Shown here: positions 21,967-28,493 of the stretch, piece by piece | Position numbering within the stretch: position 1 is the first letter of the stretch | Layout: the number at the start of each line of letters is the position of its first letter | Assembly: GCA_041494705.1 (NCBI GenBank) | Contig: JBGQBI010000003.1 | Location: 240,001 to 272,000 of the forward strand | Origin: Candidatus Methanoperedens sp. | GTDB lineage: Archaea > Halobacteriota > Methanosarcinia > Methanosarcinales > Methanoperedenaceae | DNA length: 32,000 nt | Reading direction: 5' to 3' | Notes under the pieces: model-generated | Database searches by the model: none | Told to the model about the DNA's origin: nothing | The model's input: the letters and a program-made list of their open reading frames with translations, nothing else | Translations under genes and position numbers: made by a program

Positions 21967-22059
21967 CGTTACGGGAATATATAAATATGCCGTTACGGGA
22001 TTTTGTGGATTAAATTCCGTTACGGAATATGCACTATATGCACTAATTCCGTTACGGAA
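21967..22059. promoter_or_regulatory. Palindrome array A: four copies of CGTTACGG / TTCCGTTACGGAA
   Basis: Cores lie at 21967-21974, 21991-21998, 22018-22025 and 22050-22057. A tandem 9-bp duplication, tatgcacta, lies at 22028-22045 between copies 3 and 4. The array sits in the divergent intergenic region between the ubiD operon and the RCC1 operon. Confidence 0.8.
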
Positions 22060-22163
22060 TATGTAATTTTAAGACGATAACTTTTTATGCCTTTAATTAA
22101 TAGTTGACAAATCCCAGACTTTACTCAAATCCTCGGATTGGAGTATTGAAAAACGGTGAAAAA

Positions 22164-24371
22164 ATGGAAATTAAAAACGTTTACAGAGGGCGCGCCCTCA
22201 GGATAGCGGCAGGAATTTTGGTGATGGTTTTGTTGTTGACGGGAGGCGCGGGGGCGAAAGGCGTGGATGTTGTGGCAATAGCGCCTGCAACAGCTACACA
22301 GCCCGCATTGAGTGTTACTGTGACTCCAAGCACTTTAACAGCAGGCACAACTACACTTGTGACCTTCACGGTGACCAGTAAGATGGGTGCAGTGGTAAGC
22401 GGCGCAGCAGTCACCCTGACCGGCGCAGCCTCAGGCAGCGGGACTACAAATGCTAACGGCGCAGTAACCCTGACCGTGAATACCGCAAATGCAGGCACAA
22501 TAACGGCAACAGCGAGTAAGACAGGATTCATAAGCGGCAGCACGACCATAACCGCAACAGTGCCTGCGGTGGCAGTGTATATGCCGGTGTATATTAGTGC
22601 AATAGCCCCTGCGGCGACAGAAGTATGGGCGTGGGGAAGTAATTCCAACGGTCAGCTGGGAGACGGCACAACCACCCAGAGTTTATCCCCGGTTAAGGTA
22701 AGCGGGCTTACAGGTACCATAACAGCCATTGCCGCCGGTTATGACCATACTGTTGCCCTGAAGAACGACGGGACGGTATGGGCGTGGGGAAATAATGTGC
22801 TGGATCCGGCATGCGTCGGTACATTCGGTTGGCAGTGTGCTGGAGACGGCGCACACCCTCAGAGTTCATCCGCGGTTCGGGTAAGCTGGACTACAGGTAT
22901 TTTTACACCTGTAAGTTCGCTTACAGGCGTAAAAGCCATTGCCGTCGGTCAAGTACATACTGTTGTCCTGAAGAACGACGGTACTGTATGGGTATGGGGA
23001 GATAATAACGCCGGTCAGCTGGGAGACGGCTTAACCTATCCGATGTTCGGAGGAGCGGGTTACCCCGTTTCGAGTTCATCCCCGGTACAGGTAAGCGGGC
23101 TTACAGGTATAACAGCCATTGCCGCCGGTAATTACCATACTGTTGCCCTGATGAACAACGGTACGGTCTGGGCGTGGGGAAGTAATTCCTACGGTCAGCT
23201 GGGAGACGGCACAACTACTAATAGATTTACCCCGGTTAAGATAAGCGGGCTTACAGGTATAACAGCCATTGCCGCCGGTGAAACACATACTGTTGCCCTG
23301 AAGAACGATGGTACGGTATGGGCATGGGGAGATAATGGCTACGGTCAGCTGGGAGATGGCACATTCACCTCCCAGAGATTATCCCCGGTTCAGGTAAGCG
23401 GGCTTACAGGTATAACAGCCATTGCCGCAGGTGGAATAGATACTGTTGCCCTGAAGAACGACGGGACGGTATGGGCGTGGGGAGATAGGGTGATGTCCCC
23501 GGTTCAGGTAAGCGGGCTTACAGGTATAACAGCCATTGCCGCAGGTGGAACAGAAACCGGTGGAACACATGCTGTTGCCCTGAAGAACGACGGCACGGTA
23601 TGGGCGTGGGGATATAACGACTACGGTCAGTTGGGAGATAACACAACCATTGGTAAGAAATCCCCGGTTCAGGTAAGCGGGCTTACAAACGTAAAAGCCA
23701 TTGCAGCAGGTGGTTACCATACTGTTGCCCTGAAAGGTTCTCCTCCAACATTGAGCGTGAGTACAATCCCGGATACAACAGCAGGCACACCTGCAAGCGT
23801 GACCTTCACCGTGACGGGCGCCGGCTCTCCTGTAAGCGGCGCAACAGTCACCCTGATCGGCGCAGCCTCAGGCAACGGAACAACAGATGCAAGCGGCAAA
23901 GTTAACATAACCGTGAACGCCACCGGTGCAGGCACCATAACAGCCACAGCAGGAAAGACAGGGTTCACAGACGGAAGCACAACCATAACCGCAACAGCCC
24001 CTGCCACCACCGCAACCACACCTACAGTTACACCTGCAATAACCCCCCCAACAGGCAGCGCAACCCCCACCATCGTAACCCTTCAGGGAAAACTCACCGA
24101 CAGCGCAGGAAATCCTGTCCAGACAGGAAGCATGAACATCACAATCACCGACTCCTCAGGCGTGCAGGTATGGCAGGAAACCTTTAACGATGTCATAGAC
24201 AACGGTGTGTTCAATATTCCGCTGGGAGCTATACACGAACTCAGGCTTCTATCCGGCAGCATATACAATATGAAAGTGGCGATCGATACCAAATCCAAAA
24301 CATTCTCAACCGTTGACGTTACCTTCGGAGAAAATTTACTTGAGGGCGATGTGATAAAGTTCAAGGCGTAG
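22164..24371 (+). CDS. Secreted RCC1-repeat (beta-propeller) protein flanked by Ig-like domains
   Basis: I trimmed the start to the ATG at 22164, which follows GGTGA. The signal/TM segment is [22 protein letters not shown]1-like units of the form VWAWGxNxxGQLGDGT..[18 protein letters not shown] are repeated. Two similar Ig-like modules ([25 protein letters not shown]) lie before and after the propeller. Confidence 0.85.
22620..23745 (+). repeat. Intragenic tandem repeats of about 150 bp (RCC1 blades) with long identical DNA cores
   Basis: The core (a/g)taagcgggcttaca occurs six times. In several copies it is followed by an identical ggtataacagccattgccgc. Confidence 0.85.
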
Positions 24372-24373
24372 GC

Positions 24374-24721
24374 ATGCCCCGAATGCTATTCCTGCTTCTT
24401 GTTGCAGCCGTCGTAAGCTCTGGCTGCGTGGCAGAAAAAAAGGCGGGGCTAAATGAGAGCCTGCTTGATATCGCCTCCCATGAGCCCGAGGTAAGCTCGT
24501 TCATCGCCCAGAACCCTGATGCCCATCCTGATATTACAGCTCTTGCGCCTGAGACTATCGCGCAGTTATCGAAAAAGTATCCTGCGCTCTACGGCAGCCT
24601 GCCAAACAAGACGCTATATAAGCTCGAATACAAGGGCGAAAGGGGATTGCTTGTGATTGTTGACCTTGAGAATAAAAAGGTGCTGAAGTATTTCAGGACT
24701 GCCGGGGTGAGTTTGCAATGA
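24374..24721 (+). CDS. Small secreted protein or lipoprotein, function unknown
   Basis: The signal peptide has a lipobox-like LLLVAAVVSSGC. The start lies 2 nt after the RCC1 stop, and the ORF overlaps the YVTN gene start by 4 nt. Confidence 0.6.
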   Translation: MPRMLFLLLVAAVVSSGCVAEKKAGLNESLLDIASHEPEVSSFIAQNPDAHPDITALAPETIAQLSKKYPALYGSLPNKTLYKLEYKGERGLLVIVDLENKKVLKYFRTAGVSLQ

Positions 24722-28071: not shown

Positions 28072-28095
28072 AATACTCTGATTTGATTATCCGGG

Positions 28096-28105
28096 TATAT
28101 AAAAA
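28096..28105 (-). promoter_or_regulatory. Candidate TATA box for the recombinase gene
   Basis: The minus strand reads TTTTTATATA, ending about 24 nt upstream of the ATG at 28071. It abuts the dif-like palindrome. Confidence 0.45.
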
Positions 28106-28135
28106 CTGCGTATAATATATCTTATACGCAGTTTT
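28102..28135. other. Perfect 14-6-14 palindrome with dif/recombinase core-site architecture
   Basis: The sequence is aaaactgcgtataa-tatatc-ttatacgcagtttt. The arms are exact reverse complements. The inner ATAA-N6-TTAT layout resembles Xer dif sites. Confidence 0.6.
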
Positions 28136-28295
28136 AGGAATTTTTTGCGATTTTTTGATTATTTGACCGGGAAAATTAACGATATTAGCCGGAAAACCAG
28201 GAAAGTCCATGATAGGGCTATCAAATGGTTGAATGAATAACGAAGATTTGCCATAAATTAAAATAAGAGGTTTGAATAAAAATAAAATGCAGAAT

Positions 28296-28493
28296 TTCCG
28301 TAACGGAATTGTTCAAAGAATTTACTGTAACGGATTTTATTTGCTAAACCCCGTTACGGAATGATTAAGAGTCCAAAATACATGATGGATTATTGGAAAT
28401 GCATAATAATAAAGTCTATGAGTTTTTTCCGTAACGGGAATTTTGGCATTTAATTGCGTAACGGGAATTCTCTAATAAAATTGCGTTACGGAT
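28296..28493. promoter_or_regulatory. Palindrome array C: six copies arranged 3+3 around an AT-rich spacer
   Basis: Cores start at 28299, 28326, 28352, 28430, 28458 and 28484, giving spacings of 27, 26, 78, 28 and 26 bp. The extended consensus is roughly AATTYCGTWACGGRAATT. The array lies between the divergent xerA and dut genes. Confidence 0.8.

Follow-up and report, generated by a model that had tools for sequence, protein, structure and literature searches.

What is the purpose of three regularly phased arrays of a short palindrome, two of which bracket a gene for an archaeal tyrosine recombinase? The question is raised by 32 kb of a Candidatus Methanoperedens genome (contig JBGQBI010000003.1, positions 240,001 to 272,000; this whole stretch is the window throughout), in which fourteen copies of the palindrome are gathered in intergenic arrays, here designated A, B and C. 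To our knowledge, chromosome dimers in archaea are resolved by the recombinase XerA at its site dif, and without FtsK. A 2021 review of archaeal tyrosine recombinases knows of no system that would tip the Xer reaction towards resolution, and no FtsK-like directionality control is known for archaeal Xer (PMC8371274). The sole indication to date comes from Thermococcus, in which DNA near dif sets up an Smc boundary by way of a non-specific nucleoid protein (PMC11840125). We find that the arrays accompany xerA and a dif-like site within a single archaeal lineage, that they are disposed about this site with mirror polarity, and that their copies have the properties predicted for sites of a dimeric protein which is probably not XerA. 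We suggest, with a confidence close to even, that protein coats formed on the arrays serve the dimer-resolution site as an accessory or architectural component.

Results

The repeated unit is a 19-bp near-palindrome in a 27-bp register

A preliminary description of the window had reported fourteen copies in three arrays, all of them intergenic; every copy is present where it had been placed, the intergenic location is borne out, and nothing comparable occurs elsewhere in the window (Table 1). The core CGTWACGG gives 20 strand-hits in the 32 kb against 0.77 expected, a figure equalled in none of 100 dinucleotide-preserving shuffles, and the 13-mer TTCCGTWACGGAA gives 11 matches with up to two mismatches (0.69 expected). 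When the scan was relaxed to three mismatches, all matches with two or fewer were confined to arrays A, B and C, and the three-mismatch matches outside them were few and solitary (5682, 5961, 8767, 29337 and 31603). The spacings given previously were reproduced apart from trivial differences, save that the last two in array C are 27 and 27 bp and not 28 and 26; array C as a whole is thus spaced 27, 26, 78, 27 and 27 bp. Individual copies depart from the pattern: B1 (CCGTACGG) has no central base, the orthologous copies in the related loci L035 and L042 reading GCCGTTACGG, and C2 is degenerate (CTGTAACGG). A4 is an extra copy in comparison with most relatives, which carry three, and the left block of array C has four copies in relatives such as L035.

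A logo made from the copies pooled over the related loci reads AAATyCCGT-W-ACGGrATTT, flanked by uninformative spacers, so that of the 13–19 bp dyad first proposed only the longer extent, about 19 bp, describes the informative site. Neighbouring copies are 27 bp apart in 126 of 171 pairs; a spacing of 24 bp is a recurrent exception and always concerns the pair A1–A2. The unit is a site of about 19 bp plus about 8 bp of free spacer, with copies following one another head-to-tail, and the longest arrays contain 12–13 copies in perfect register. A comparison of two orthologous 10-unit arrays, from L095 and L112, gives 86.8% identity over the 19-bp core against 45% over the 8-bp spacer, and copy-specific variants are kept between the two. 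Considering that cores are conserved, spacers random and copy-specific variants retained, we conclude that the arrays are old and that selection acts on the sites and their register, not on the repeat unit.

Variation in one half of the palindrome is independent of that in the other. At position ±4, 270 pairs are complementary, compared with 276 expected under independence; the non-complementary combinations C/C and G/G are frequent there, and the compensatory G/C is rare. Since the half-sites decay independently and without the covariation of a hairpin, they are more simply seen as two half-sites read by a protein dimer than as a selected hairpin, and selection for a hairpin or cruciform was rejected for this reason. 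The evidence points to the repeats being sites of a two-fold symmetric (dimeric), sequence-specific DNA-binding protein, as predicted from their variation.

Other identities were considered and rejected. An RNA gene or structured RNA found no support in ARAGORN or Rfam, both of which were empty over the arrays at the gathering threshold and at E≤1. A CRISPR-like repeat would have a repeat–spacer period of 55–75 bp, not 27 bp. A coding repeat of nine residues (27 bp being nine codons) is contradicted by stops in every frame, at positions that are unlike between orthologues; in addition, spacings of 26 or 28 bp break the nine-codon frame, and the stop-free runs in long arrays, which reach 88/117 codons, are explained by the periodicity only. 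The mechanically called open reading frames (ORFs) that overlap the arrays (21789–22013 and 27002–27238) have no family matches. In full-text literature searches on the motif, and on Methanoperedens combined with recombinase or palindrome terms, we met with no account of such an element.

The arrays flank xerA and a dif-like site

The gene enclosed by arrays B and C encodes a protein of 278 aa consisting of Pfam domains PF13495 (Phage_int_SAM_4) and PF00589 (Phage_integrase) and no other domain, which scores above the equivalog cutoff of the archaeal XerA family (Table 1) and has XerA of Pyrococcus abyssi as its best PDB match (4a8e, E=1.5e-48). Its SAM-like N-terminal domain is followed by a catalytic domain with the R…HxxR…H…Y signature, apparent in the translation as GLRLSE, HTLRH and LGHSNLQTTQIY. 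Judged by family profile and catalytic motifs, the enclosed recombinase is a bona fide XerA.

Upstream of xerA and its TATA-like box we found an element that had not been part of the preliminary description, a core site of two symmetric 12-bp arms around a freely varying 6-bp spacer (28104–28133), an architecture which is that of dif as defined in the literature (PMC8371274, PMC11840125). Moreover, this architecture and the conserved TAA-N6-TTA centre match archaeal and bacterial dif (PMC2958812, PMC8371274, PMC11840125), and dif-like sites of haloarchaea, which are likewise upstream of xerA, provide a precedent for the placement (PMC11840125). The site occurs once per locus (once in the window), in 24 of the 24 Methanoperedens loci compared, in 42 of 64 array-bearing sources and in every Methanoperedens locus with sufficient flank. 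Its spacer reads TATATC, GATATA, TGTATC, TCTACC, TGTAGA and others, and its arms fall into three classes (CTGCGTAT, CTGTATAT and GTACGTAT), which change symmetrically between lineages with few hybrids. The left arm abuts the TATA-like box of xerA and, by directly adjoining it, takes the position of the B recognition element (BRE). We refer to 28104–28133 as dif-like: the likeness is one of architecture, and the single copy per chromosome, the place in the termination region and the binding and cleavage by XerA that are expected of dif are putative here.

Several further observations concern this site. Hybrids with arms of unlike classes (e.g. CG-type with TA-type) are present in L110 (12–41), L042 (2846–2875) and L048 (1706–1735), and could be intermediates in arm co-evolution or products of recombination between unlike sites. 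A near-identical 12-6-12 sequence, AACTGCGTATAA-TTAAGA-TTTTACGCAGTT, is found on a Paenibacillus urinalis plasmid (NZ_CP118109.1; L117 2505–2536; blastn E=1e-6), with similar flanks and between co-directional genes, as either a plasmid Xer site or a terminator hairpin. In L051 (7748–8002) and L054 (4695–5105) a gene which we named by eye as encoding an HNH endonuclease-like, Cys/His-rich protein separates the dif-like site from xerA.

In nearly all related loci the arrays flank a XerA orthologue (72–97% identity). Genes and arrays usually follow one another as ubiD ← orf78 ← [A, 3 copies] – conserved 170-bp element – [B, 4 copies] ← xerA – core site – [C, 4–13 copies] → variable gene, where orf78 is a small orphan gene considered below. 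The distance between A and B is only about 170 bp in L035, L042, L047 and L062; in the window a 5-kb surface-protein operon intervenes. The dif-like site or xerA is present in the stored flank of 46 of the 63 loci whose arrays have a 27-bp period; in each of the remaining 17 the flank stored on one side is shorter than 350 bp, so that they provide no demonstrable exception. The first copy of array B is centred 8–14 bp beyond the xerA stop in 13 of 26 loci (in the window the array sets in 14 bp past the stop codon). Array C always lies on the side of the dif-like site that faces away from xerA, irrespective of the gene that comes next. By family search this gene is dcd or rpS8e, depending on the lineage (rpS8e being accompanied by a ThrRS-like ORF, named by eye); genes named by eye at this position encode a small membrane protein, an exported protein together with a DNA-polymerase-like ORF, a NifH-like protein, or CDC48- and Hsp20-like ORFs. 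Neither orc1/cdc6 nor parA was found among the sampled genes beyond array C. The gap between array and dif-like site is 165–250 bp on the C side, and about 0.9 kb on the other side, beyond xerA. Because L048 and L064 keep the dif-like site with an array of nine or eight copies and have no adjacent xerA, the arrays track the site rather than the gene. An array precedes TGT by 84 bp only in those genomes (four loci) that place the gene within a few kb of xerA/dif; in the window TGT is 22 kb distant and no array accompanies it.

The copies are also polar with respect to the dif-like site. When 290 distinct copies are oriented with dif to their left, 71% of them have A as the central base, and position −4 is C in 68% and G in 29% of them, compared with G in 90% at position +4, so that the half-site pointing away from dif is the better conserved one. 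Copies from the C side (n=150) and copies from the xerA side (n=93), taken separately, both show the bias, and tallies per locus agree (20/22 left-hand, 25/30 right-hand). For the centre base Fisher's test gives p = 2e-12, a value which overstates independence, since the loci are related, while the polarity is consistent across clades. It is unaffected by the orientation of the neighbouring gene, which in L095 points towards dif.

The arrays belong to one archaeal lineage

A pattern demanding three phased cores was run over 185,579 prokaryotic species, each represented by one genome. The scan returned 31 loci, 27 of which are in Candidatus Methanoperedens or Methanoperedenaceae genomes or in unclassified archaeal metagenome-assembled genomes (MAGs) that share the xerA locus, and the remaining four are unrelated bacterial tandem repeats. 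The identical pattern found 54 loci in JGI metagenomes, about 35 of them of Methanoperedens type. Arrays of this type thus occur nearly exclusively in Candidatus Methanoperedens. The best 120 matches in a search for XerA homologues were all Methanoperedens XerA.

A viral, plasmid or Borg origin was rejected: 29 IMG/VR contigs fit a loose triple pattern, yet they are unrelated and mostly exact tandem repeats. Phages gave no blastn match, and the only plasmid blastn match covers the dif-like hairpin alone. The IMG/VR contigs (L003–L031) carry tandem arrays containing CCGTWACGG with periods of 7–48 bp, many of high GC content, in an architecture unlike that of the Methanoperedens arrays.

orf78 is the best candidate for the array-binding protein

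Array A lies on the promoter of orf78, with its 24+27 spacing conserved, in 17 of 17 orf78 loci. Copies A1 and A2, 24 bp apart, enclose the TATA-like box of the orf78–ubiD operon, which we assign this function by the archaeal promoter consensus, and A1 covers the predicted start; the distance of the box from the orf78 ATG implies a leaderless or near-leaderless mRNA. A TATA-like box lying between A1 and A2 is a classic geometry of archaeal autorepression. We found 54 homologues of orf78 at 60–97% identity, most of them unnamed as to source; those whose source is named are without exception from Methanoperedens or from archaeal MAGs that lack a classification. Only five matches emerged when 1.84 billion representatives were searched with a profile. 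With homologues so few and lineage-limited, the taxonomic range of orf78 equals that of the arrays. The protein has no Pfam, NCBIfam or PDB profile match. From its position and range, orf78 seems the best candidate for the array binder. The binder is probably not XerA, which was considered for this role and rejected: the array consensus is identical across lineages with three classes of dif arm, that is, the motif does not co-vary with the arms, and XerA is composed of the two core domains only, with no extra N-terminal arm-binding domain such as lambda-type arm sites call for.

Neighbouring genes and other conserved elements

Table 1. Arrays, genes and conserved elements of the locus, in window coordinates
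Feature	Position	Strand	Details
ubiD	20253–21716	−	Menaquinone-type UbiD decarboxylase (Pfam and NCBIfam)
orf78	21716–21952	−	Orphan small basic protein, 78 aa; conserved C12, C15, H56 and C59; stop overlaps ubiD start
Array A	21961–22062	.	4 copies; centres 21970, 21994, 22021, 22053; spacings 24, 27, 32
TATA-like box of orf78–ubiD operon	21978–21985	−	TTTATATA; 26–33 bp upstream of ATG at 21952
Conserved non-coding element adjoining B1	27000–27125	.	Alignment over 12–15 loci
Array B	27131–27230	.	4 copies; centres ~27139.5, 27166, 27194, 27221; spacings ~26, 28, 27
xerA	27235–28071	−	Archaeal Xer tyrosine recombinase; NCBIfam NF040815 recomb_XerA_Arch, 264.8 bits (cutoff 220)
TATA-like box of xerA	28096–28103	−	TTTATATA; putative promoter element, read from the sequence
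dif-like core site	28104–28133	.	AACTGCGTATAA-TATATC-TTATACGCAGTT; 12-6-12 inverted repeat
AT-rich 34-bp element	28251–28284	.	CCATAAATTAAAATAAGAGGTTTGAATAAAAATA; multi-lineage alignment
Array C, left block	28293–28364	.	Centres 28302, 28329 (degenerate), 28355
Array C, right block	28424–28496	.	Centres 28433, 28460, 28487

According to Pfam and NCBIfam the gene order is ubiA (− strand), a GPN-loop GTPase gene, a gene for a 7TM-DUF835 protein, ubiD, orf78 and array A, continued by an RCC1/beta-propeller/Big_2 surface-protein operon (22104–26937), array B, the recombinase gene, array C, a dUTPase/dCTP-deaminase-like gene and hdrCB. Two non-coding elements are conserved beside the arrays. The element at 27000–27125 contains a TATA-like box (27019–27026), a palindrome (TTCGTATATATGCGAA, 27033–27048) fitting the MsvR-type TTCG-N8-CGAA box (motif from PMC3729527), and an 11-bp inverted repeat (GTGGGCAGAAA/TTTCTGCCCAC, 27054–27064 and 27099–27109) around ACCACCA(CCA)TAAT. 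It gives RNA fold z-scores of −4.1 and −3.4, has no Rfam match other than a meaningless one to mir-55 on the inverted repeat (E=0.62), and is present in two copies in L032 and in L054; a small RNA gene is one possible identity, a promoter directed through array B antisense to xerA another. The AT-rich 34-bp element is nearly invariant across lineages and always stands about 10 bp ahead of the first C copy, and the DNA between it and the dif-like site varies in length; it recurs at array ends in L066 and L076.

The surface-protein operon (22063–26990 with its flanks) encodes an RCC1-repeat protein, a 115-aa protein and a YVTN beta-propeller/Big_2 protein, and is an insertion between A and B relative to L035, L042, L047 and L062. 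The cargo between A and B differs elsewhere, consisting of MarR and DUF362-like ORFs (named by eye) in L037 and L079, and in L035 a small membrane-protein gene, absent from the window, lies between the left and right blocks of array C. Further away, a GmrSD-like gene and a PIN-domain gene (13735–16301 and 15511–15807) separate Rpr2 from ubiA, which are closer together in L034 and L053; with a 98-aa duplicate of the UbiA C-terminus at one edge, this segment has the appearance of an island which entered ubiA at its 3′ end and duplicated the target. Finally, GC content falls to 27% at 8001–9000 (compared with about 43%) over a DUF2971 gene (7927–8790, − strand), which was probably acquired horizontally.

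Discussion

A proposed nucleoprotein platform around dif

We tentatively favour a role of the arrays at the dimer-resolution site itself. A dimeric protein other than XerA would coat 100–350 bp on either side of the xerA–dif unit. Since 27 bp is about 2.6 helical turns, adjacent dimers would lie near opposite faces of the DNA, with every second dimer on the same face, and this disposition favours a continuous filament or superhelical coat over side-by-side cooperativity. The two coats could act as bookends that shield dif from SMC loop extruders, transcription and replication forks (a roadblock or insulator); alternatively, or additionally, they could provide an accessory DNA–protein scaffold which biases XerA synapsis towards resolution. 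Promoters embedded in the coats would be repressed, either as a by-product or as a coupled function, and orf78, were it the binder, would repress its own promoter inside array A. We hold it to be unlikely, though worth stating as a specific proposal, that an orf78-family zinc-binding protein polymerizes on the mirror-oriented polar arrays and so controls FtsK-less Xer recombination, be it as a roadblock for SMC and replication or as a resolution scaffold. If this were true, it would represent an archaeal functional counterpart of Ter/Tus, MatP/matS or the cer accessory sequences, made from unrelated parts.

Several points weigh against a platform of this kind. The array binder is a candidate only, and orf78 is without a recognizable DNA-binding fold (AF2 pLDDT 66.7; no significant Foldseek, Pfam or PDB match); given its translational coupling to ubiD, it could instead be a partner of UbiD or have a metabolic role. 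Array A overlaps a promoter, and in L089 a three-copy array stands upstream of dcd, 7 kb from xerA, both of which would be expected of an ordinary local repressor. The polarity is statistical, a bias of about 70%, and falls short of an absolute orientation. The scans required three near-exact copies, so isolated or weak sites elsewhere lie outside their reach, and no complete genome was among those scanned. Lastly, the status of the dif-like site as chromosomal dif, and its location at the terminus, are putative, and the site may alternatively be read as a hairpin plus T-run, that is, as terminator-like.

Among known systems, the DNA around dif in Thermococcus kodakarensis forms an Smc boundary by way of a filament-forming, non-specific nucleoid protein, independently of XerA and dif (PMC11840125), and the authors of that work proposed that the boundary helps to bring dif copies together (PMC11840125). 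That boundary, which flanks dif, involves Smc-ScpAB and depends on TrmBL2 (PMC11840125), resembles the present locus in having non-coding DNA on both sides of an archaeal dif, here with a proposed coat. It differs in being a 1.9-kb AT-rich, A-tract-rich region bound by a protein of low specificity with no discrete motif, whereas the present arrays consist of a discrete 19-bp palindrome in a 27-bp register, mirror-oriented and confined to one lineage.

The accessory sequences of plasmid sites, cer with ArgR–PepA and psi with ArcA–PepA, offer another parallel, in that 100–350 bp of DNA predicted to bind protein lies beside a Xer core, the binder would not be the recombinase, and the flanking DNA could impose selectivity for resolution. 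At cer and psi the accessory DNA adjoins the core on a single side and contains ARG or ArcA boxes. Unlike them, the present arrays are chromosomal and do not abut the core, standing 165–250 bp away on one side and beyond xerA on the other, and their motif looks unlike the ARG box. In Bacillus subtilis, rtp is located next to its own sites and is autoregulated, as we propose for orf78. The Tus–Ter and RTP–Ter fork traps, the FtsK-orienting polar sequences (KOPS) and the archaeal short polarized sequences (ASPS) of Thermococcales (PMC2958812) share with our arrays an orientation that flips at dif or the terminus. Ter sites, however, are asymmetric and small in number and are scattered across hundreds of kb, whereas the arrays have every copy close to dif (a few kb at most) and a polarity that is only a bias of about 70% in a near-palindrome.

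In kind, the element thus falls in with known arrays of protein sites next to a Xer core. No described counterpart combines a discrete palindrome phased at 27 bp, two mirror-oriented blocks about a dif-like site on a chromosome, an orphan protein as candidate binder and confinement to a single lineage.

Alternative explanations

The strongest alternative, though we regard it as rather unlikely, is that the arrays are cooperative operators through which a local repressor (orf78 or an unlinked factor) controls orf78–ubiD, xerA, dcd and TGT, with no role in recombination or architecture; xerA would then perhaps be controlled by a loop between B and C, or by blocking of antisense transcription from the promoter-like element near B. 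Operator arrays were also among the three roles first suggested, none of which had been preferred, and part of that suggestion stands, in that the sites are of dimer type and array A encloses the orf78–ubiD TATA-like box, with the special 24-bp spacing of A1 and A2 kept in every lineage. Archaeal repressors such as MsvR do cover the BRE/TATA or the start site (PMC3729527); arrays occur upstream of TGT in four loci (by 84 bp) and upstream of dcd in L089, and B and C bracket xerA. What does not fit is that B and C are anchored to xerA/dif whatever gene follows, array C being kept throughout, and that most C and TGT copies lie 40–300 bp upstream of the nearest promoter and not on it. Moreover, up to 13 strictly phased sites are far above known archaeal operators, the genes concerned share no obvious functional theme, and arrays remain at dif where xerA does not (L048 and L064). 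Mirror polarity about dif, which in L095 is independent of the orientation of the neighbouring gene, is left unexplained by gene regulation.

It is improbable that the element serves segregation in the manner of a centromere, with a centromere-binding protein connecting the chromosome to a partition machine, although its architecture invites the comparison. The sopC site of plasmid F comprises 12 units of 43 bp with an inverted repeat in each, and the family of repeats (FR) of Epstein–Barr virus (EBV) about 20 units of 30 bp with an 18-bp palindrome in each; both are plasmid or episome maintenance elements, tied to SopAB or EBNA1. As in these, our units (27 bp, up to 13) are head-to-tail, each with one palindromic site, conserved cores and a fixed register. 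The element is present once per genome, at one locus, and has a gene for a GPN-loop GTPase, of the SIMIBI class, as a conserved neighbour. However, GPN-loop GTPases are universal archaeal housekeeping proteins, and neither a ParA/SegA-type ATPase gene nor one for a known centromere-binding protein lies beside the arrays in the sampled loci. Unlike sopC and FR, the array has no linked partition NTPase or operon and is split into two inverted blocks around dif, and known centromeres are found near origins or par operons, not dif.

A replication origin, with the arrays serving as sites for an initiator like the origin recognition box (ORB) or mini-ORB, inverted around an unwinding region, is very improbable. 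There are resemblances: the outer bases form a TTCC…GGAA dyad, the repeats are clustered in AT-rich intergenic DNA in inverted, mirror-oriented blocks, the conserved 34-bp AT-rich element stands beside array C, and a DNA-polymerase-like ORF (by eye) or dut/dcd is a neighbour in some lineages. Between the blocks, where an origin would have an AT-rich unwinding element, lie xerA and the dif-like site together with AT-rich spacers. ORBs are polar monomer sites, a short dyad with an asymmetric extension. The present site, by contrast, is a palindrome symmetric over 19 bp with only a weak bias, has 5 bp between TTCC and GGAA (another spacing than in ORBs) and lacks an asymmetric extension rich in G. 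The window ORFs that were scanned, and the neighbour ORFs sampled at about 60 related loci, yielded no orc1/cdc6, and the enclosed segment is a 0.84-kb gene with a recombination site, dif-like, which would be expected opposite the origin in single-origin chromosomes. Plasmid iterons, direct repeats of 17–22 bp by a rep gene, are likewise unlike these near-palindromes in their chromosomal housekeeping context. The earlier suggestion of iteron or ORB-like sites is therefore not upheld, since the window and sampled neighbour ORFs contain neither orc1/cdc6 nor rep, the site is a symmetric 19-bp one, and a dif-like site is adjacent.

It is equally hard to credit that XerA itself binds the arrays, as half-dif or XDS-like loading sites or as arm-type sites, by which the enzyme would be enriched at dif. 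Half-sites of the arrays, (T)TGCGTA or TTCCGTA, do resemble the outer dif arm CTGCGTA, and in B. subtilis XDS sites close to the terminus, at which no recombination takes place, are bound by XerD (cited in PMC11840125). Against this, the array consensus is unchanged in lineages where the dif arms went from CG to TA or from CTG to GTA at the positions that would align, half-sites 13 bp closer together than in dif would presumably not admit two XerA clamps in dif fashion, and XerA is without an additional arm-binding domain. Of the accessory recombination sites proposed in the preliminary description, then, the association with xerA/dif is strongly supported, and arm-type binding by the recombinase itself is not.

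That the arrays are a functionless or selfish tandem repeat or satellite is barely credible, for although copy number ranges from 2 to 13 between lineages and tandem repeats are common in Methanoperedens-associated elements, cores are conserved while spacers are randomized, the register and the copy-specific variants of orthologues are maintained, and positions relative to xerA, dif and orf78 are fixed down to 72% XerA identity.

Significance

The locus may bear on how archaea organize or control dif. Methanoperedens is an uncultured methane oxidizer of environmental importance that is not yet genetically manipulable, and the array motif is a useful marker of the xerA/dif locus in its metagenome-assembled genomes. 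A discrete phased array, together with a plausible adjacent orphan protein, offers a direct experimental handle on the control of dif.

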